A DNA stretch of 64,000 nt from NCBI GenBank assembly GCA_963797095.1, contig CAWCNY010000003.1, positions 224,001-288,000 on the forward strand, in the 5' to 3' direction. Origin of the DNA: an uncultured Chloroflexia bacterium. GTDB taxonomy: Bacteria > Chloroflexota > Chloroflexia > QHBQ01 > JADMIH01. Both the position numbers and the translations under genes were made by a program. Below the pieces are notes generated by a model. It saw nothing but the letters and a program-made list of their open reading frames with translations, was not told the origin of the DNA and did no database searches. Each line of letters begins with the position of its first letter. Position 1 is the first letter of the stretch. Shown here in pieces: positions 8,612 to 63,988 of this stretch.

Positions 8612-9556
8612 CTACCAACCAAAATAGTCCCCAAGCGAGGCCAGCACTTCGGTAAAATCAAGGAACCTGTAAAACTCATCGTCAACGTTCCCATCGCTAT
8701 CCTCAACCGTCCACCAGGCCGACAGCACAGCCTGCGCCATCGCCCACCCGTAAATGCGCCGGCGATCGAACCCCAGTTCATCCGCCAACTGATCCATGCG
8801 CCGCTTCAGGATACGGCCAGGCTCCGGCTCAAACAATATCTGGGGCACCGGATTGCGAATCAGCGCCCCGATCTCATACTCAGCCTCGCCAACCACACCA
8901 TGCGGGTCAATCGCGAGCCAGGGTTGGCGCTCCGCCGACAGGATATTGTAGTGGTGCAAATCTCCGTGTAACACCACACGCACGCCCTGCGACGGCAAAA
9001 GCTCGGCGTAAAGCCGCTCCGCCTTGTCCACCACATAAGCCGGGAATGGACCCGTGCCGCCGTTGTACCGGGCGCGCAACTCAACCAGACCTTGCGCCCA
9101 CTCCTCCACGCTCGGAAAGCGATGGCCCTCCGGTGCTGGGTGCCGTATCTGGCGCATCACAGATGCCGCGATCGAAGTGGCTTGCGCATCGTCCTCCAGC
9201 GTCGATAGCATCACCCCAGGCTCGATCCTCTCAAGCAGCATCACACCCAACTCAGGATCGTACTCAAGCATAGCCACCGCGCCCACTCCCCCATAAATGC
9301 GGAGCGCATCGGCCTCCGCCGAGAACTCGCGGCTGGGGAAGCACTTGATCACAAGCCGCGTGCCATCCGCGCGCACAGCGGGCGCGACGTAGTTGTACGA
9401 CAACCCGTCGAACGGCGGGCCAATCGCGATAGACCACCGCCTCTCACAATCCTCAAGGATCGCGGGCAGTTCCCGGAGCCACTCGACACCACGAACGCCG
9501 CGTTCGCTGGTGTTCTTATAGATAAATACAGGCGGCAGAAAGAACGGTGCAGGCAT
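8612..9556 (-). CDS. Aminoglycoside/hydroxyurea phosphotransferase (APH(6)-like kinase)
   Basis: LLERIEPG, LHGDLHHYNIL, WLAIDPHG motifs. Confidence 0.85.
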   Translation of the reverse strand: MPAPFFLPPVFIYKNTSERGVRGVEWLRELPAILEDCERRWSIAIGPPFDGLSYNYVAPAVRADGTRLVIKCFPSREFSAEADALRIYGGVGAVAMLEYDPELGVMLLERIEPGVMLSTLEDDAQATSIAASVMRQIRHPAPEGHRFPSVEEWAQGLVELRARYNGGTGPFPAYVVDKAERLYAELLPSQGVRVVLHGDLHHYNILSAERQPWLAIDPHGVVGEAEYEIGALIRNPVPQILFEPEPGRILKRRMDQLADELGFDRRRIYGWAMAQAVLSAWWTVEDSDGNVDDEFYRFLDFTEVLASLGDYFGW

Positions 9557-19790: not shown

Positions 19791-19838
19791 TAGCCCCGGA
19801 GGGGCAAAAGAGAGTAGCCCCATGCGTAAGCGTGGGGT
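19791..19838. repeat. REP-like doublet
   Basis: AGCCCCGGAGGGGC and AGCCCCATGCGTAAGCGTGGGG; similar to 48102-48160. Confidence 0.55.
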
Positions 19839-29801: not shown

Positions 29802-31982
29802 TCAATCGCCCTCAATCGTCTCACTCATATCAAGCAGATAACGCTCAAAACGCAAGGCGTATTGGTGATGCCTTTCTGCTTCCTTCAGGTTCCCACCAGC
29901 CGCAGCTTGCTCAGCCAACAAAAGCTCCATCTTTCGCCGCTCTCGCAGCCGAGGAGCACGCTCTGGAGATGTAATGAAGCGCGAGCAATAGAGGTAAAGG
30001 TCGCACTCACACGGGCCCTCTTCCGGAAGCCGCAGGCATTCCCCCAACTCAAGCTCTGTCTTGATGAACCGAGCCTTCAACCACTCCACATCTGAAGCGG
30101 ACACTCTGGACGTACGAAGGATCTCGGCGAAAGGGCCCGCTACAGGCATACCAGGCCGCAATTCAGTGCGCAGGGCGGCGCTGTAGTCATCGAGCATATC
30201 CTGGTCGTTGATATGCAAGTAGACCATGGTGTGGTTGGCACTTTCGTGGCCGAGCACCCTCATGATCGTGTTCAGCTTGGCTCCCTTCCTCGCCAGTTGT
30301 GTAGCAACGGTATGGCGGAACCGGTGGGCTGTGACCTTGGCCTTGCCGTCTGGCGTGACGAGACCTGCTCTCTTGCAAGCCATCTTCAGTGACACTTCGA
30401 ACAAGTATGCTGACGAGTAGCGCTTGCCATGATGAGTGAACAGGTAATGTGTCTCCAGTCCCGTGTGATGATCTCTCAGCCCTCGACCTACTCTGGGTCG
30501 AATAGACAAGAGGTACCGGATTGCCTCGGCAGCTTCTTCATGCAAAGGCACCATCCGCTCCCTATTAGTCTTGCCTGGAGGGATACGAAGACGAGGAGTG
30601 CCGTCAGGGTAACTATCCAGGCAATCTACTTCAAGCCGACAGATCTCGTCCCTCCGGGCACCGCTCCATCGAGCGATGAGCAGAGCAGCGCGCTGATAGG
30701 GACATTCCATACTTCGGATAACCTGCATTAGCCGTTCAAGCTCATCGTCGGGGATGTACCTGGGCAAATACATCGCTCGTTTGGGCAGGTCTCCTCTACT
30801 CAGCAGTGGCCGGTTCGGTACATCCATCTCCCCGTTTCTACCCCTACCGCCCTCCCTCGGCTCCATCCAATTAGACCACTCAGAGATCCGCCTGAAGAAG
30901 ACGTTCAGTGCCGACAACACGCCAATCTTGGCGCTCAACGAGTAGGGTCTCTTGCTAGTCACGCCCACCATGCCGTTGAGGTACTCAGCGAACTCCAGCA
31001 GGTCTTCCCGCGTGACGCTAGCCAAACTTTCGAGCTCCGGGTGAGCACTTATCAGCCACCGGACAAAGAGGGTGAGGGCCAGTCCTATGCTCAGTATAGT
31101 TGCCGGCCGATCTACAAGCTGTCGCTCCCTTATGTACCGGTCAATCACAGCCCCGATACGGGGTGTATGCGCCCAGGCCCGCGGGGCTATGCCTTTAGGC
31201 TGGGATCTGTGTGGCTCCCGAGACACCTGGCCTCTGTGATACAGGACCACGTTCAGTACGTGAAGGCCATAGGAGTATTCCACGAGTGCTCGATGATATC
31301 GCGTTTCAGATCCGAAGTAGAGGGCAATATCTGGGCGCTCTCCCAACTTACGGGCGGCCTGCAGGTATTCGTCAAGGTGATCATCGGTGATGTCCTCAGA
31401 GCGAGTGATGCCCGTGTGCAGAAAGATGCGGCCCATGACGGAGCGAAGTTCCTGAACTGCAGCATGCCGGTTATAGCCCAACCTTACCGCCTCTTCAACC
31501 AGCGCTGGCACGCCAAGGTCTATGTCAAAGTATTCCAGTAGCTTCAATACGCGCAGCACCGGCATTGCGAGTATCCATTCCAGGTCGAAACGAGCGTAGC
31601 CACGTGTCGCCAGATACATAAGGTACGGTCGCGCCCTGAATGACACCACGTTAGTGGGTGGATTCTTGTTGCTTTCATTGCGCCCTTGGCCGTAAAGACG
31701 ACCAATTCGCTCTGGTAAGGGCGCGGCGAACCACTTATTCAGATCCGGATATTTCCAGGTGAACCGGGAATACGAGAGATGCAGCTTGTTGAAGTTAGCC
31801 TCTGTCTTCGTATATTCATGGAGGAAAGCAGAGTACTCTGCCAGACTGGCGTGCTTGTATTGGAATTGTGCTTGAGGGGGTTGAGGCTGGGACAGCGAGC
31901 GAAGTATCCCGGTTGAAGAAAGAGCGTCCACAGAGTCGCTTACAGCGGACTTGGTGGGCCTGGGCGATCTGTATGATCTCAC
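29802..31982 (-). CDS. Large tyrosine recombinase (TnpB-like)
   Basis: SGARRDE, PGKT, HRFRHT, LGH, TMVY catalytic set; C-terminal Cys cluster GECLR..GPCECD..C. Confidence 0.92.
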   Translation of the reverse strand: MRSYRSPRPTKSAVSDSVDALSSTGILRSLSQPQPPQAQFQYKHASLAEYSAFLHEYTKTEANFNKLHLSYSRFTWKYPDLNKWFAAPLPERIGRLYGQGRNESNKNPPTNVVSFRARPYLMYLATRGYARFDLEWILAMPVLRVLKLLEYFDIDLGVPALVEEAVRLGYNRHAAVQELRSVMGRIFLHTGITRSEDITDDHLDEYLQAARKLGERPDIALYFGSETRYHRALVEYSYGLHVLNVVLYHRGQVSREPHRSQPKGIAPRAWAHTPRIGAVIDRYIRERQLVDRPATILSIGLALTLFVRWLISAHPELESLASVTREDLLEFAEYLNGMVGVTSKRPYSLSAKIGVLSALNVFFRRISEWSNWMEPREGGRGRNGEMDVPNRPLLSRGDLPKRAMYLPRYIPDDELERLMQVIRSMECPYQRAALLIARWSGARRDEICRLEVDCLDSYPDGTPRLRIPPGKTNRERMVPLHEEAAEAIRYLLSIRPRVGRGLRDHHTGLETHYLFTHHGKRYSSAYLFEVSLKMACKRAGLVTPDGKAKVTAHRFRHTVATQLARKGAKLNTIMRVLGHESANHTMVYLHINDQDMLDDYSAALRTELRPGMPVAGPFAEILRTSRVSASDVEWLKARFIKTELELGECLRLPEEGPCECDLYLYCSRFITSPERAPRLRERRKMELLLAEQAAAGGNLKEAERHHQYALRFERYLLDMSETIEGD

Positions 31983-33481
31983 TGCTGGTTCCTCCTCTCT
32001 CTTCTCACCCTTCTCTCACCTACTACTTTTCCCGTCGAACTTGTTACTTCATCCCCAACCCCGCTCGTTTCCTTAATACCGTCCAATCCATGCTGGCGCT
32101 CCTGCCCCTGCTCTTGATGAATAAAGACTTGCGAGATTTCCATTAGTGGAGCCACTTCTTGAGATGGCAGGTTCCCAAGGCCGAGAGCGTGTCGATATTC
32201 GGCAACCACCGTCTTGTCGGAAACTCGGGTGTAGCGGCGGGTAGAGTCGAGAGAAGCATGTCCCAACCGCTTTTGAAGGGTAAGCTCACGCATGCCTTGC
32301 TCCCACATCTTTGTAGCGTGGGTGTGACGTAGGGCGTGCGGGGTCGTCCAGTACTCGCGTATATTCAGCCGCTCACAATGACGCTGAAACATCTTGACGA
32401 GTGCGGCATACCCAAGCGGTTCTCCTCGCCGCCTGCCTTTGCCTCCCACCAAGAACACGTATGGGCTTTGGAAATCGAGAGGCCGCTCCTGCATAACGTA
32501 AGTAGCAACAGCGTGCAGCGCTTCCGGCTCGTGCAGGTCCACCACGCGCTCACGCCGAGACTTGGTACGCACGCCCTTCGGATGGTCAGTGTGGTACCGG
32601 ACGATCACCCGACGGTGACCGTACTCTATGTCATCGAGATGGAGGCTGAGGACCTCGCCCGGGCGTAATCCCCCCTGCAACATGAGCAGCAACATTGCCT
32701 TGTCTCGCCATCGTGAGAAGGAGAGGAGGAGTTGCTCTACTTGCCCATCAGACATGGGGCGCGGCAGATATTGAGCTGTCTTGACCGTCAGAGTGCGCCT
32801 GATAGGCTTTCGCCAACCCCAGGAATCGTGACCTGCTTGGTCATGCACCCCACTCACGTCCCGCAGCTGCCATGACGATTGGCGGGCGGGTCGCGTTCCT
32901 TGGTATTGTGGGTATTGCGGATATGGTGGAGAACCGGAAATATCGTCCGCCACACGAGCGAGTGCTGGATCATACTGTTTCGCTATGGGATTCTGCCTGG
33001 TCTGTAGCCATGCTGAGACTATCAGGTAATCATAGAAGGATGAAACAGCTGCGATAGCACGATTGATCGTGGCCGGCGCTAGGCGAGTGCTCGAGCTCCG
33101 ACCACTTCCTCTAGTTGCGGCAACTCCGGCAGTTTCGGCATTTCCACCGGTACACAGCACAAGACTGTATCTGTGAGTGGATCTAGCATTGGAGACCGAG
33201 CGCAGGTACTCCAGGAACAGGATTGACTCTGCGGGACCAAAGCTTCCGAAGTCTAGACCACGCCCAACGAAGAACTGGGCGAAATGGAGCAGATCGTAAG
33301 CATAAGCAGCTAGGGTATTGGGGGAACAACCGCGAGCACTCAGAAAGTGCATAAACCAGGAAACCTCAGGTAGAGGCTGGCCACTATCATCGAGTAGCTC
33401 GAAAGACACTTGGCCTTGCCCTTGGCCTTGGCTTGGGCTCAGTACTTGGCCTTCTGAGCTTGACACACGCCGGACTTTCAT
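31979..33481 (-). CDS. Tyrosine recombinase (TnpA-like)
   Basis: SPNTLAAYAYDL, GLRPGE, HALRHT, LGHAS, TRRY. Confidence 0.92.
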   Translation of the reverse strand: MKVRRVSSSEGQVLSPSQGQGQGQVSFELLDDSGQPLPEVSWFMHFLSARGCSPNTLAAYAYDLLHFAQFFVGRGLDFGSFGPAESILFLEYLRSVSNARSTHRYSLVLCTGGNAETAGVAATRGSGRSSSTRLAPATINRAIAAVSSFYDYLIVSAWLQTRQNPIAKQYDPALARVADDISGSPPYPQYPQYQGTRPARQSSWQLRDVSGVHDQAGHDSWGWRKPIRRTLTVKTAQYLPRPMSDGQVEQLLLSFSRWRDKAMLLLMLQGGLRPGEVLSLHLDDIEYGHRRVIVRYHTDHPKGVRTKSRRERVVDLHEPEALHAVATYVMQERPLDFQSPYVFLVGGKGRRRGEPLGYAALVKMFQRHCERLNIREYWTTPHALRHTHATKMWEQGMRELTLQKRLGHASLDSTRRYTRVSDKTVVAEYRHALGLGNLPSQEVAPLMEISQVFIHQEQGQERQHGLDGIKETSGVGDEVTSSTGKVVGERRVRRERRNQQ

Positions 33482-59226: not shown

Positions 59227-60333
59227 CTAAGGTAACGTGCCCGGAAACTCCAACCCCAGGTGCTCAGGCCAGCCAAACGCTACATTGAGGTTCTGCACGG
59301 CCTGGCCCGCGCCCCCCTTCACCAGGTTATCTATGGCACTCGTGACAATAATCGCACCTTCGCCATCGGTAGCGGCATTCAGGTCGCAGAAGTTGGAGTG
59401 CGACACCACCGCCACTCGCGGCGTATCGACCAATCTCACGAAATACTCCTGCCCGTACGCTTCCTCGTAGATACTCTGCAATTCTGCGTTGCTCACCTGC
59501 CTCCTCGGAAAAGCGTAAGCGGTGGTAAAGATCCCCCTAACCATCGGCGCGGAATGAGGCGTGAACACCACTCGCAAATGATCATTCTCTGTTGATAGCC
59601 ACTTGTTCAACTCCTGCGCTATCTCAGGGCGGTGTCTGTGCTTGAACAGGCCATAAGCGCGAAAGTCGGCGGCGCGGGTGGGGTGGTGCGTCCCCTCCCC
59701 CGGTTCCTTCCCCGATCCCGACGACCCCGTCTTAGAGTCTATCACAACAGACCCGTCGAGCAAACCCGCCCGCGCCAGCGGCGTCAGCGCCAGCAGCGCC
59801 CCCGTCGGGAAGCACCCCGGACAGGCCACCAGCCGCGCCTCCTTAACAGCGTCCCGGTTCCACTCCGTAAGCCCGTAAGCCGCACGAGCGGCCCATTCAG
59901 GCGCGGTGTGCTCCAGGCGATAATACTCCTGAAACGTCCCAGGGTCCATGATCCGAAAATCGCCGCTCATATCGAACACCACCGGCCCCTCCCCACGAGG
60001 GCCGCTCTTACCCCCTACCGCCAGTATTCCCGGCACGCGCTTGATAGCCTGCCCGTGCGGCAGCGCCAGGAACACGGCGGCGTACTCGCTAGCTTCCTCG
60101 TCCGAGATCGAAGCCACAAACTCCAGGTCCGTGAGCCTCGCGAGATGCGGGTGCACTGAACTCACCTTCCGCCCTGCATTGGACCCCGACGTGACGGCAG
60201 CCACCTGCACACTTGGGTGCCCCAGCAAGAGCCGCAACGCCTCGCCCCCGATGTACCCCGATGCGCCCAGGATCGCCACCCGAACAGGTGCCGGCCGGGA
60301 ACTCTGAGGCATAGGGGTATCAGCCACGCTCAC
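59227..60333 (-). CDS. argC: N-acetyl-gamma-glutamyl-phosphate reductase
   Basis: GASGYIG, LALPHG, PGCFPT, HRHRPEI, DNLVKGGAGQAVQN; GTG overlaps the upstream stop. Confidence 0.95.
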   Translation of the reverse strand: MSVADTPMPQSSRPAPVRVAILGASGYIGGEALRLLLGHPSVQVAAVTSGSNAGRKVSSVHPHLARLTDLEFVASISDEEASEYAAVFLALPHGQAIKRVPGILAVGGKSGPRGEGPVVFDMSGDFRIMDPGTFQEYYRLEHTAPEWAARAAYGLTEWNRDAVKEARLVACPGCFPTGALLALTPLARAGLLDGSVVIDSKTGSSGSGKEPGEGTHHPTRAADFRAYGLFKHRHRPEIAQELNKWLSTENDHLRVVFTPHSAPMVRGIFTTAYAFPRRQVSNAELQSIYEEAYGQEYFVRLVDTPRVAVVSHSNFCDLNAATDGEGAIIVTSAIDNLVKGGAGQAVQNLNVAFGWPEHLGLEFPGTLP

Positions 60334-61397
60334 GACGCCACGACCTCCCTCGGCGCGACCTCCGGCAACAGCTGCCTGCCGCAAATCTTGTGCTCAACGA
60401 TATCCGCCAGCGCATCAGGGTGCCAGCGCCCGTTGACCGCCGCCCTGCCAAAACGCTGCTGAATATAGTCTACTCCTGCGCTGTTGTCGGTGGCTGGCCC
60501 CGAAATGCAATCCACCTGCAAACCGAACTGCCCCAGGAAAAGCAGACCACCCCAGGCCGCCACCAGGTCGTTAGCGCACAGCACGTGCGCCTTCACGTGC
60601 CCCATCAACTCGCCATCCTGAAGCAGCAGATCAACCCCGTAGTGCCCCATGATCCCATCCCCAAACTCCACAATAATGGCGTCAGGGTTGCTTTCGTTGA
60701 GGGCCGCAATTATGCCCTTCGCCGCTGGCACCAGGCAATCGTCGGTGTGTGTAGTCGAAGGCAGACCCGCATCGCTGAACGATAACGCATGTACCGCTCC
60801 TCTCGCCCGCATATTGAGCAGGTCGCGCTGAGTTGCTACCCCGGCCAGCTTGGCCGCCGCCACTCGGTAGCCCTTATCCCCTAAGATCCTGATGATCTCG
60901 CAGGCCGCAGTGGTCTTGCCTGCGTTCATACAGGTGCCGGAAACGAGGATAATAGGCGCGGAGCGAGAAAGGTGGCTCCGCCAGGGGAGCGCATAGTGGG
61001 CGATATTTGCGGGCTTGCCATCGACCACCGCCGCGCCAAGCACTCGCACAGGCAAAGGCAAACCGAAATCGGTGTTTATCGAGGAGCAAAGCCCTACCAC
61101 CCCACCCATATTGAGGATATGTAACACGTCGCCCTCGGAGACGCGGTCAGGGATCGCGCCGACGTATCCTTTCAGTGCCTGACGCTCCCCCAGTACCCCC
61201 GCGATTCGGTCGCCCTTGACAATCGGGGCCATTACCCCGCCAACCGTCTCAAGCTCTCCGTAGACATCTTTCTCTTCCAGGGCTTCGACTATCACTACCA
61301 TGCCCCGTTCGGCAGGAATCGTGCGGGTGATCTCAACCTCGCGAGGTAGCCCTACCCTCGTGGCGACCGAGGCGATCTTATCCAGCGTAATGCGCAT
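60330..61397 (-). CDS. DUF1611/DgcN-like P-loop protein, first gene of the arg operon
   Basis: Strong RBS (AAGGAGG); GTCMNAGKTT Walker A, AAAKLAG..RD, FSDAGLPST, IVEFGDG; translationally coupled to argC. Confidence 0.75.
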   Translation of the reverse strand: MRITLDKIASVATRVGLPREVEITRTIPAERGMVVIVEALEEKDVYGELETVGGVMAPIVKGDRIAGVLGERQALKGYVGAIPDRVSEGDVLHILNMGGVVGLCSSINTDFGLPLPVRVLGAAVVDGKPANIAHYALPWRSHLSRSAPIILVSGTCMNAGKTTAACEIIRILGDKGYRVAAAKLAGVATQRDLLNMRARGAVHALSFSDAGLPSTTHTDDCLVPAAKGIIAALNESNPDAIIVEFGDGIMGHYGVDLLLQDGELMGHVKAHVLCANDLVAAWGGLLFLGQFGLQVDCISGPATDNSAGVDYIQQRFGRAAVNGRWHPDALADIVEHKICGRQLLPEVAPREVVAS

Positions 61398-61579: not shown

Positions 61580-61842
61580 CAAAAGCTCCCGCCCCCTGCA
61601 AGGGACGAGAGCCACATTACTCCCGCGGTGCCACCCTCATTGTCACATCAATCTTCTGTGACCGCTCATCGGTTGTTTGCTACGTGGTAACCATCCACCC
61701 CTCCTACTTGCACGCACCGGGGCGCGTACTTTCTTCGGCGGGCCGCTCTGTGGCGGGTTCCTTGCCGCAGGTACTTCGGGCTTCCACTCCCCCCGATTCG
61801 CTGAGCGTCCTTACAGCAATTACTATTCCACATCATCGCGGG
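61580..61842 (-). ncRNA. T-box riboswitch leader, Arg (CGC) specifier
   Basis: Minus strand: GA motif GCGATGA, AGTA, AGCGA and GTGGAAG distal motifs, specifier loop GAACC-CGC (61755-61753), T-box AGGGTGGCACCGCG (61637-61624), then terminator. Confidence 0.88.
61581..61612 (-). terminator. T-box intrinsic terminator
   Basis: GCTCTCGTCCCT-TGCA-GGGGGCGGGAGC-TTTT; CGTCCCT can alternatively pair with the T-box. Confidence 0.85.
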
Positions 61843-61880
61843 CGTGCGGCCAAAATGCCGCTATTCGCTTGTTGGGGAGT

Positions 61881-61949: not shown

Positions 61950-62089
61950 CTGGGGTATCCCGCGTTCTAGATTCAAGTTCGCTAACATACAACCTTTCTC
62001 TAAATAGCCAAAAATGGCGGCGACGCCGCCATTTTTGGCTATTTAGAAGTGCCCCTCCCCAAAATTTCGGGAGGGGTTGGGGTGGGGTC
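61950..62089 (+). repeat. Composite repeat copy D (degenerate unit, perfect 23-bp hairpin, CCCCTCCCC/G-tract)
   Basis: Arms 61999-62021 and 62025-62047; CCCCTCCCCAAAATTTCGGGAGGGGTTGGGGTGGGGTC. Confidence 0.85.
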
Positions 62090-62129: not shown

Positions 62130-62158
62130 TTGCCACTTTCCCCCTGATAGGATATAAT
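62130..62158 (+). promoter_or_regulatory. Sigma-70 promoter of the cys operon
   Basis: TTGCCA-17 nt-TATAAT. Confidence 0.75.
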
Positions 62159-62206
62159 GGTAAGACTTGCACCGATCCCTCTAATTCAACAAGCAAGTCA
62201 AGCAAA

Positions 62207-62386
62207 ATGCAAAATCCGGACCGAAGAATTGTAGAGTTGCTAGCGGCGAGCACCAGCAAAGATTGTGGCTGTTGCTGCCGCTTCACCATGGCACGCGCAC
62301 CTCGGGGCGCTGCCCACTCCGACCGGTCCGATCCCTCGTTGTCTTGTCATAATCCGGTGGCGATGAAGCTACCTGATGGTGCGTAG
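62207..62386 (+). CDS. Putative Cys-cluster leader peptide (59 aa)
   Basis: MQNPDRR..KDCGCCCRF..; TGT GGC TGT TGC TGC at 62264-62278; lies between the promoter and a terminator; no clear SD. Confidence 0.45.
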   Translation: MQNPDRRIVELLAASTSKDCGCCCRFTMARAPRGAAHSDRSDPSLSCHNPVAMKLPDGA

Positions 62387-62410
62387 AGGCACAGCAATAC
62401 CTGAACCAGG

Positions 62411-62441
62411 AAAGGGCCGACCGGCATGGTTGGTCTTTTTT
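62411..62441 (+). terminator. Intrinsic terminator in the cysteine synthase leader
   Basis: GGGCCGACC-GGCAT-GGTTGGTCT stem followed by a T-run, 25 nt before the start codon. Confidence 0.75.
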
Positions 62442-62466
62442 GTTTCCCTCTCAGGAGGCAGGTTTG

Positions 62467-63498
62467 ATGCATCAGGCACACGCCACAATACCAGGCATCC
62501 CCTCACTCTATCGCGAGCGTAGGGCCGATGTAACAGAATACATAGGCAACACCCCTCTCCTCAGGCTGGCCCACATCGAGCAACAGTACGGCCTACCCGC
62601 AGGCGTAGAACTCCATGCCAAGGCAGAGTTCTTCAACCCCGGCGGCTCCGTAAAAGACCGCGCGGCCCTCTACATGATCCGCGACGGCGAGCAGCGCGGC
62701 CTCCTCTCCCCAGGCAAAACCATTCTCGACGCCAGTTCGGGCAACACAGGCATAGCCTACGCCATGATCGGCGCTTCCCTCGGCTACAAAGTCGAGATCT
62801 GCCTCCCCGAATTTGCCAGCCCTGAGCGTAAGCGCCTGCTCAAGCTCTACGGAGCCAACATCATCTACACCCCCGCTGCCGACGGCACCGACGGCGCGAT
62901 CCTCGAAGCCCGACGCCGCCACAACGAACATCCCGATCTCTACTTCTATCCCGACCAGTACAACAACCCCGCCAACTGGTGGGCCCACTACTACGGTACC
63001 GGACCCGAGGTATGGCAGCAAACCCAGGGCAAGATCACCCACTTCGTAGCTGTGGTCGGCACCTCTGGCACCTTCACAGGCACCTCCCGCCGCCTCAAAT
63101 CCTACAACTCGCAAATCGAAATAGCCGAAGTCCAACCCGAATCCGCCTTCCACGGCCTCGAAGGCGTGAAGCACATGCCAACCGCCATAGTGCCCGGCAT
63201 CTACGACCCCAACCTCGCCGACCGCCACCTCACCGTCAGCACCGAGCAAGCCCAGCAAATGACCCGCGCCCTCGCGCGTCACGAAGGCATCCTGGCAGGT
63301 CCATCGGGCGGCGCGGGCGTGCTGGCCGCCGTCCAGGTGGCCCGTTCCCTCACCAAGGGTGTTGTAGTAACCGTCCTCCCCGACGGAGGCAGCCGCTACC
63401 TCGGCGACGCCTTCTGGGAGGAAGATGAGCGCACTGGAACCAGCAGGTGTAGGGGCGAGGCATGCCTCGCCCCCATTGGGGGCGAATACTCTCCATAA
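62467..63498 (+). CDS. cysM: PLP-dependent cysteine synthase (CysM-like)
   Basis: IGNTPL, NPGGSVKDR, SSGNTG, GTSGT, PDGGSRYL; adjacent to a JAB gene. Confidence 0.88.
   Translation: MHQAHATIPGIPSLYRERRADVTEYIGNTPLLRLAHIEQQYGLPAGVELHAKAEFFNPGGSVKDRAALYMIRDGEQRGLLSPGKTILDASSGNTGIAYAMIGASLGYKVEICLPEFASPERKRLLKLYGANIIYTPAADGTDGAILEARRRHNEHPDLYFYPDQYNNPANWWAHYYGTGPEVWQQTQGKITHFVAVVGTSGTFTGTSRRLKSYNSQIEIAEVQPESAFHGLEGVKHMPTAIVPGIYDPNLADRHLTVSTEQAQQMTRALARHEGILAGPSGGAGVLAAVQVARSLTKGVVVTVLPDGGSRYLGDAFWEEDERTGTSRCRGEACLAPIGGEYSP
63449..63473 (+). repeat. REP palindrome within the 3' end of the cysteine synthase ORF
   Basis: GTAGGGGCGAGGCATGCCTCGCCCC. Confidence 0.7.
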
Positions 63499-63550: not shown

Positions 63551-63988
63551 ATGAATGTACACATGGAGGAATGTGCCCGCGATTCGATCACGCGGCACGC
63601 CGAATCGGGGTATCCGAACGAGATCTGCGGGATCCTGCTCGGCAAAGAGGTTGACGGCAGGCGTGTGATAATGAACTCCATGCCAATCGAAAACTCCTTC
63701 GAGACCGATGAGCAATACCACCGCTTCCGCATTACCCCCCAGGCTATGCTGGCCGCCGAAAGACTCGCCGGCCGCGACCGCATGGATGTGCTCGGCGTCT
63801 ACCACTCCCACCCCAATTCCCCCGCCCGCCCCTCCGAATACGACCGCGATCACGCCGCCTGGACCGCCTGGACCTACGTTATCATATCCGTCATAGACGG
63901 CAACCCCGCCGACTTGCGCGCCTGGAAGCTCGAAGACGACCGCAGCGCCTTCAGCGAGATAGAACTGGCGGTAGAAGTCGCAAGCTAA
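63551..63988 (+). CDS. JAB/MPN (M67, Mec-like) metallopeptidase
   Basis: YPNEICGILLG and YHSHPNSPARPSEYD (HxH-x7-S-x2-D); start uncertain. Confidence 0.92.
   Translation: MNVHMEECARDSITRHAESGYPNEICGILLGKEVDGRRVIMNSMPIENSFETDEQYHRFRITPQAMLAAERLAGRDRMDVLGVYHSHPNSPARPSEYDRDHAAWTAWTYVIISVIDGNPADLRAWKLEDDRSAFSEIELAVEVAS

Follow-up and report, generated by a model that had tools for sequence, protein, structure and literature searches.

Introduction

The classical trp, his, leu, thr, ilv and phe attenuators combine a run of cognate codons in a leader peptide with mutually exclusive 1:2, 2:3 and 3:4 helices, a U-tract terminator, and a stop codon placed shortly before that terminator. Leader-peptide attenuators in Rfam cover His, Leu, Thr and Trp according to the available part of PMC3766115, and cysteine is absent from the classical terminator-type attenuators there. 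For cysteine, the polycysteine leaderless sORFs of mycobacteria, e.g. Ms5788A, are tested attenuators, and the one that was dissected hides a downstream Shine-Dalgarno sequence, as stated in the available part of Canestrari et al. (10.1101/834739). Actinobacterial cys leaders were reported to be without conserved terminator hairpins (PMC1262725, available part). In Rhodobacterales, uORFC-8-2 is a predicted Cys uORF followed by an intrinsic terminator before cysS, where stalling is presumed to cause readthrough (Brewer et al. 2021, PMC8632094, available part). The tested Cys leader, Ms5788A, is translational, and the terminator-type case that we found is a prediction.

A cysteine pathway composed of CysO, CysM, Mec+ and MoeZ has been described (PMC3227635, available part). 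No Cys attenuator of Chloroflexota appears in the available parts of PMC13236596, PMC2965389, PMC4833913 and PMC3766115, and no report of one was found in the open-licence literature, subscription papers such as Lopatovskaya et al. 2010 lying outside this search.

In this study, we analyzed a stretch of 64,000 nucleotides from an uncultured Chloroflexia bacterium, referred to as the window, in which an original prediction had placed a cysteine-sensing attenuator upstream of a cysM-JAB gene pair. The poly-Cys leaders of mycobacteria to which it referred are the tested sORFs mentioned above. Sequence features and folding models indicate that the cysM leader is probably a Cys-tRNA-sensing, ribosome-mediated transcription attenuator. 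It possesses both the codon run and the terminator before the first gene that define such attenuators at the sequence level, and is therefore a candidate member of this class.

Results

Genetic organization of the cysM leader

The leader is located on the plus strand between a sigma-70-type promoter and the cysM-like gene, with the following features.

62130-62158, plus strand: sigma-70-type promoter, TTGCCA-17-TATAAT, 11/12 match to the consensus
62207 (ATG) to 62386 (TAG), plus strand: 59-codon leader ORF with an A-rich, weakly folded 5' region and without a Shine-Dalgarno sequence
62264-62278, plus strand: Cys-Gly-Cys-Cys-Cys at codons 20-24, putative sensor, with Cys at codons 20, 22, 23 and 24
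62453-62458, plus strand: Shine-Dalgarno sequence AGGAGG of the cysM-like gene
62467 (ATG) to 63498, plus strand: cysteine synthase family protein (CysM-like), 343 aa, TIGR01138, PALP
63551-63988, plus strand: JAB/JAMM protease (Mec+-like) encoded by the operon's second gene, Prok-JAB, E 1e-24

The promoter and the 59-codon ORF with its CGCCC stretch were both found where the original prediction had seen them. Promoter spacing would place the transcription start site at about 62165, and 48 nt separate the -10 box from the leader ATG. The CysM-like protein matches the PALP domain and scores 348 bits against TIGR01138, below the equivalog cut-off of 394; its named closest relatives are proteins of Chloroflexia/Chloroflexota annotated as cysteine synthase, with identity up to ~80%. 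The window ends 12 nt past the JAB gene. Sulfur-carrier and MoeZ genes are not seen within it, and the cysM-JAB operon may continue beyond its end. The second PALP gene in the window encodes a threonine-dehydratase-family protein and has no comparable leader.

The nearest gene upstream of the cysM leader is divergent, belonging to a T-box and arg operon on the minus strand, so that the plus-strand terminator at 62409-62445 can act on the cysM leader only. The T-box leader (61598-61845, minus strand; 75.8 bits against a gathering score of 93) precedes the divergent arg/car operon and stands back to back with the cysM promoter. The first gene after it (60330-61397, minus strand; 355 aa) heads argC-argD-argB-carA-carB and belongs to no NCBIfam family, having a weak CbiA P-loop match only. 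Between the divergent promoters lie a perfect inverted repeat of 24 bp around a 1-nt loop (61999-62047) and a G/C-rich palindrome (62052-62087), which we take to be REP-like. Another REP-like palindrome, at 63449-63498, is read through by the CysM-like protein, which is ~20 aa longer than most of its close relatives (343 against ~321).

Elsewhere in the window, two adjacent tyrosine recombinase genes of 500 and 726 aa (29802-33481, minus strand) possibly mark a mobile element. A match to Rfam Acido-Lenti-1 (19792-19837, minus strand) scores 39.4, just above the gathering score of 37, and a kinase of the APH_6_hur family (aminoglycoside/hydroxyurea resistance kinase family) is encoded at 8612-9556 on the minus strand.

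The Cys run and the leader ORF

Dinucleotide shuffling of the leader produced four Cys within five codons in 40 of 20,000 cases in any frame and in 11 of 20,000 within an ATG ORF, a criterion fixed after the run had been seen. Read in the two remaining frames, these bases encode AVAAA and LWLLL, which makes the Cys run a triplet-like repeat. Over the six frames of 462 kb (the window and 22 further loci described below), 16 such four-of-five runs were found. Four of them are in the window itself, where just the leader run was noted between a promoter and a terminator. A fifth Cys of the leader ORF is at codon 47.

The original prediction had assigned a weak Shine-Dalgarno sequence to the leader ORF. 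None is present before the ATG at 62207, where the pairing energy is +0.8 kcal/mol, compared with -10.0 for both cysM and JAB. The available part of one survey gives 61% of Chloroflexia genes with a Shine-Dalgarno sequence (PMC10783764). In the available part of another, initiation independent of this sequence is favoured by weak structure in many phyla, an effect not significant in the two Chloroflexi tested (PMC5397173). Translation of the leader ORF is, in view of these surveys and the missing Shine-Dalgarno sequence, an assumption. The putative transcription start is in frame with the leader ORF, with 14 open codons between them (62165-62206), the first triplet being ACT and not a start codon.

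No relatives or family of the leader peptide were found by word search, phmmer, Atlas or NCBIfam; the sole phmmer match (614 aa) was unrelated and was dropped. The leader DNA had no match among plasmids and phages.

Predicted structures of the leader RNA

Folding gives a predicted trp-like layout of 1:2, 2:3 and 3:4 helices, composed of the following elements.

62217-62223, plus strand: segment 1 at codons 4-6, the anti-antiterminator, complementary to 62324-62330 over 7 bp without a mismatch
62242-62282, plus strand: hairpin A, whose 3' arm is the Cys run; -21.9 kcal/mol, z -2.05, 9/200 shuffles
62290-62314, plus strand: hairpin B, z -1.9
62319-62334, plus strand: segment 2, antiterminator 5' strand, pairing with 62409-62424 or in the CCGGTC register
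62340-62391, plus strand: hairpin C, enclosed by the antiterminator and holding CCGGTGGC and the stop codon; -20.1 kcal/mol, z -2.0
62409-62445, plus strand: intrinsic terminator (segments 3:4) with U tract, 14-bp stem including an A/G-U extension

The terminator just before the cysteine synthase gene's ribosome-binding site, already recognized in the original prediction, has its stem at 62409-62441, its loop at 62423-62427 and its U tract from 62436. Its stability is -17.6 kcal/mol (z -3.1), equalled by 2 of 200 shuffles. The stop codon of the leader ORF is 25 nt before it, and 133 nt separate its stem from the last Cys codon of the run. Hairpins A, B and C are all inside the leader ORF.

The helix between segments 1 and 2 (62217-62223 with 62324-62330) has -14.9 kcal/mol and is predicted with P 0.98 once transcribed without a ribosome. 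The antiterminator between 62319-62334 and 62409-62424 consists of 12 pairs out of 16 with two 2x2 loops (-18.4 kcal/mol), and pairing in the CCGGTC register is a near-equal alternative in the folding. Helices that may exclude one another are thus present in the folding, and the original prediction had missed both the 1:2 helix and hairpin A with the Cys codons. It had proposed CCGGTC (62323) and CCGGTGGC (62354) as complements of the terminator 5' arm. Both can pair with it (-9.8 and -12.1 kcal/mol), and CCGGTGGC is the weaker candidate, being disfavoured as the main antiterminator since it is locked within hairpin C.

Rfam searches of the leader strand at E up to 10 revealed no riboswitch, T-box or SAM-I, which bears out the original reading; the T-box match is on the other strand. 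Hairpin C contains words that we take to be SAM-I-like and kink-turn-like, which were rejected as they have no Rfam support. An exact 10-nt direct repeat occurs in the leader at 62172-62181 and 62328-62337, and in the fold with an initiating ribosome, bases at the first copy can form pairs with the 3' arm of the terminator.

Folding models of the proposed switch

In a first model, folding is restricted to RNA 3' of the ribosome, and the transcript ends at 62435. The terminator then has P 0.92 without a ribosome, 0.005-0.047 with the ribosome on the four Cys codons, and 0.88-0.98 with the ribosome at codons 36-60, up to the stop. The terminator is likewise disfavoured with the ribosome at most positions between codons 7 and 35. 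With three more U's, at 62438, the terminator recovers to P 0.35-0.70 and is dominant or near even. When the leader was shuffled with the terminator kept, this joint pattern appeared under the same model in 0 of 200 shuffles, and in 3 of 200 at loose thresholds, the thresholds having been set after the observed values were seen. The antiterminator of the window alone was equalled by 20-25 of 200 shuffles, and is not beyond chance.

A different result was obtained when pairing across the ribosome was allowed. A lone ribosome at Cys22 then leaves the 1:2 helix at 0.94 and the terminator at 0.89, whereas a ribosome on the start codon leads to antitermination, even with a second ribosome at the stop. 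Masking of codons 1-11 alone switches the fold to antitermination, and masking of only the Cys codons produces no switch. Cys specificity thus rests on a steric or kinetic assumption, namely that segments 1 and 2 are held apart or that ribosomes queue. Equilibrium folding tests neither steric separation of the two segments nor queuing, and the energy model of the folding program makes little or no charge for closing a helix around a ribosome.

Cys-codon leaders in other Chloroflexota

The original prediction had proposed a comparison of cysM leaders from related Chloroflexota. A genome scan provided 22 loci encoding CysM relatives with 51-58% identity, with no close Chloroflexia relative among them. 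Three of the 22 are titled as Chloroflexota: L020 and L022 from Caldilineaceae, which were counted as one lineage because they form one family, and L021 from Anaerolineae. Scanning up to 4.5 kb upstream, we found a leader with a Cys ORF and a terminator in all three of them and in none of the other 19. Pairs of a Cys ORF and a hairpin in L001, L002, L006 and L019 were dropped, as three were inside long ORFs and one was beyond a divergent gene. A consensus terminator scanner listed the terminators of L020 and L022 and not the long-stemmed one of L021, which was found by the scan for pairs of a Cys ORF and a hairpin. The leaders are positioned as follows.

L020, 7833-8085: leader of the C-x-C-L-stop type
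L022, 7811-8054: leader of the C-x-C-L-stop type
L021, 7999-8385: leader of the C-x-C-L-stop type

Each is arranged as a promoter, a 14-15-codon ORF ending in Cys-x-Cys-Leu-TAG, a long spacer, a predicted antiterminator, and a hairpin with a U tract. The genes behind them encode ThiS/MoaD, ThiF-rhodanese and CysM-like proteins, and the operon of L021 goes on with genes for another PALP cysteine synthase and for a hexapeptide (CysE-like) transferase. The ThiS/MoaD-like carriers (L020 8133-8432, L021 8395-8685, L022 8095-8382) have 6-10 residues after Gly-Gly, which implies trimming by a protease.

A strict test, requiring an ATG ORF whose last five codons include CC or CxC, is passed by each of the three Chloroflexota ORFs and by 95, 63 and 74 of 5,000 shuffles. 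The window ORF fails this test, with its Cys run in the middle of the ORF and not beside the stop, and a looser form of the test discriminates weakly (674 of 5,000). Between L020 and L022, codons 2-11 are identical at 17 of 30 nt, while the stop codon and the residues Cys12, Cys14 and Leu15 are all retained, the codons for Cys12 and Leu15 differing synonymously. Identity amounts to 22/25 in the antiterminator strand and 42/49 in the terminator strand, compared with 13/34 in the spacer; no compensatory change was detected between these two sequences. In both, the ATG is 6 nt after the -10 box, a spacing that suggests leaderless translation.

A strong switch is predicted for L021, where the antiterminator strand is paired by the Cys codons themselves (-24.6 kcal/mol). 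Masking the Cys codons frees an antiterminator of -41.7, which 0-1 of 60 shuffles match. A ribosome at the stop codon antiterminates in the folding too, and the decision there would hence be ribosome release. The antiterminator of L020 is borderline against shuffles (3-12/100) and that of L022 is no better than shuffles (23-62/100). Rfam has nothing on the leaders of L020 and L021.

The original prediction had listed as a caveat the gap of about 130 nt between Cys run and terminator. The gap is real, at 133 nt, and is no problem, since the equivalent distances from the last Cys are 137, 146 and 211 nt in the three Chloroflexota loci. It had also expected Cys runs in related cysM leaders, and Cys ORFs do occur in the three loci. 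However, nhmmer detected no homology of the window leader to the leaders of L020, L021 and L022, with poor alignments, nor did it link L021 to L020 and L022, though short antiterminator and terminator motifs are common to them. Without detectable homology, these loci display a design used in the phylum and not conservation of the Cys run of the window.

Among closer relatives, back-translation of the N-terminal extension of P0029 (CysM 76% identical) matches the window terminator at 22 of 24 nt, with mismatches in the loop only. The other 106 of 107 CysM N-termini reach at most 19 of 24. The extension of P0029, which is probably mis-called, points indirectly to conservation of the terminator among closer relatives and has no bearing on the Cys run. 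The extension of P0070 had looked terminator-like by eye and was dropped at 18 of 24 on a different stretch. In a search of 190 candidates for CysM relatives with a long N-terminal read-through, just the window's own protein was found.

Discussion

Proposed mechanism

From parts and complementarities present in the sequence and from computed folds, we infer translation, stalling, timing and dependence on cysteine as follows. The regulated unit would be a CysM/JAB operon for cysteine synthesis of the sulfur-carrier type. With no ribosome on the leader, segment 1 would capture segment 2 and the terminator would form. When cysteine is plentiful, the first ribosome would pass segment 2 (codons 36-49) to the stop codon, and the terminator would form as well. 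When Cys-tRNA is scarce, the ribosome would wait at codons 20-24, melt hairpin A, and hold segment 1 off segment 2. The two segments might be kept apart by the ribosome between them, or by a second ribosome backed onto codons 1-11. Segment 2, once freed, would take the terminator 5' arm, and RNA polymerase would read into cysM-JAB.

The step from stalling to readthrough was already part of the original prediction. The shuffle tests, the absence of an upstream gene for the terminator to stop, and the three of three Chloroflexota loci argue for it. It is weakened by the antiterminator, for which, taken alone, 20-25 of 200 shuffles do as well, and by the lone ribosome, which leaves the terminator in place when pairing across it is allowed.

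Alternative explanations

A ligand or an RNA-binding protein might switch the attenuator through an undescribed riboswitch or antiterminator site, with the Cys codons an unread by-product of hairpin A. We consider this unlikely. The Cys run does double as the 3' arm of hairpin A (-21.9 kcal/mol), its bases give Ala or Leu runs when read in another frame, the leader ORF has no Shine-Dalgarno sequence, and a multi-hairpin leader with a 1:2/2:3 switch could in principle work independently of ribosomes. Moreover, SAM riboswitches and T-boxes are used by Chloroflexi according to the available part of PMC3766115, and a T-box is present in the window. Against this, Rfam has no matching family at E up to 10, a Cys run ahead of a gene for Cys synthesis is rare in shuffles, and three other Chloroflexota leaders contain Cys ORFs under codon-level constraint. 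Pairing of Cys codons in a first stem does not speak for the ligand or protein either, as it also occurs in the predicted cysS attenuator uORFC-8-2, in the available part of its description.

Termination could also be gated by ribosome occupancy of the translated ORF near its start, that is, by general translation or coupling with little contribution from the Cys codons. The masking of codons 1-11, which antiterminates where that of the Cys codons alone does not, points in this direction. This explanation is nevertheless quite improbable, because it leaves unexplained both the clustering of four Cys codons and the Cys codons kept in three other leaders, and because closing a helix around a ribosome costs little, if anything, in the folding program.

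Least probable is the absence of any regulation, i.e. a constitutive leaky terminator or the end of a gene for a small Cys-rich protein or sRNA with a Cys run that arose by chance or serves as a metal-binding motif: by itself the antiterminator lacks significance and the six frames of the window hold four four-of-five Cys runs, but the leader peptide has no relatives, only the leader run was noted between promoter and terminator, the joint switch was seen in 0 of 200 shuffles, and the architecture recurs ahead of cys operons in the phylum.

Comparison with known systems

The attenuator reading of the cysM leader is preferred here, and its place among described systems can be drawn on several sides. 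The available text on the mycobacterial sORFs shows the same placement of Cys codons, in a short ORF ahead of operons related to cysteine, with a ribosome that blocks a duplex, and two adjacent Cys can suffice; L020 and L022 resemble them in being leaderless by spacing. The window leader is not of this polycysteine leaderless class. It differs in the 48-nt gap from the -10 box to the ATG, in Cys codons located mid-ORF, and in its intrinsic terminator, and in the fold of 62165-62470 its Cys codons pair locally in hairpin A and not with the cysM Shine-Dalgarno region.

The available description of uORFC-8-2 shares with the window leader an AUG uORF, tandem Cys codons in the first stem, and an intrinsic terminator after them. 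uORFC-8-2 itself is found in Alphaproteobacteria, targets a cysteinyl-tRNA synthetase, and has two Cys at codons 14-15 and two stems, whereas the window leader comes from Chloroflexota, precedes a biosynthetic operon, and has four Cys at codons 20-24 of 59 with a long-range 1:2/2:3 layout. As the gene behind it encodes a cysteine synthase family protein with Chloroflexia relatives, the window leader falls outside uORFC-8-2, a separation made by description.

From the genes alone, the CysO-CysM-Mec+-MoeZ pathway, in its available description, is resembled by CysM-like and JAB in the window, and by ThiS/MoaD, ThiF-rhodanese and CysM-like in L020-L022. The window departs from it in a CysM score under the equivalog cut-off and in the carrier and MoeZ, which are not seen before its end.

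We tentatively propose, with somewhat less than even confidence, that Chloroflexota control sulfur-carrier-dependent cysteine synthesis by Cys-codon attenuators that have arisen at least twice. One type would have a long ORF without a Shine-Dalgarno sequence, as in the window. The other would have a short C-x-C-L-stop ORF, leaderless in Caldilineaceae. Both would span 130-210 nt, with the dwell time of the ribosome deciding on a long-range antiterminator.

If these leaders are real attenuators, Cys-codon sensing with an intrinsic terminator would reach a biosynthetic operon and the Chloroflexota, in a genome that has a T-box-like leader on its arg operon. They would also support the CysM/JAB/MoaD/MoeZ cluster as a pathway that makes cysteine in this phylum. 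Under the tentative proposal of at least two origins, cysteine attenuation via intrinsic terminators on a biosynthetic operon would be a phylum-level phenomenon, of which we found no description. The concept of attenuation itself is not new, and the gain is in breadth and mechanism. The value of follow-up work is largely in the three additional Chloroflexota leaders, among which L021, for which a strong switch is predicted, is a compact test case.

Compared with the classical attenuators, the window leader would sense cysteine, has a longer ORF and no Shine-Dalgarno sequence, and places segment 1 upstream of the putative control codons without overlapping them, with 133 nt from these codons to the terminator. 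It resembles them in the run of cognate codons, the predicted 1:2, 2:3 and 3:4 helices, the U tract, and the stop codon near the terminator.
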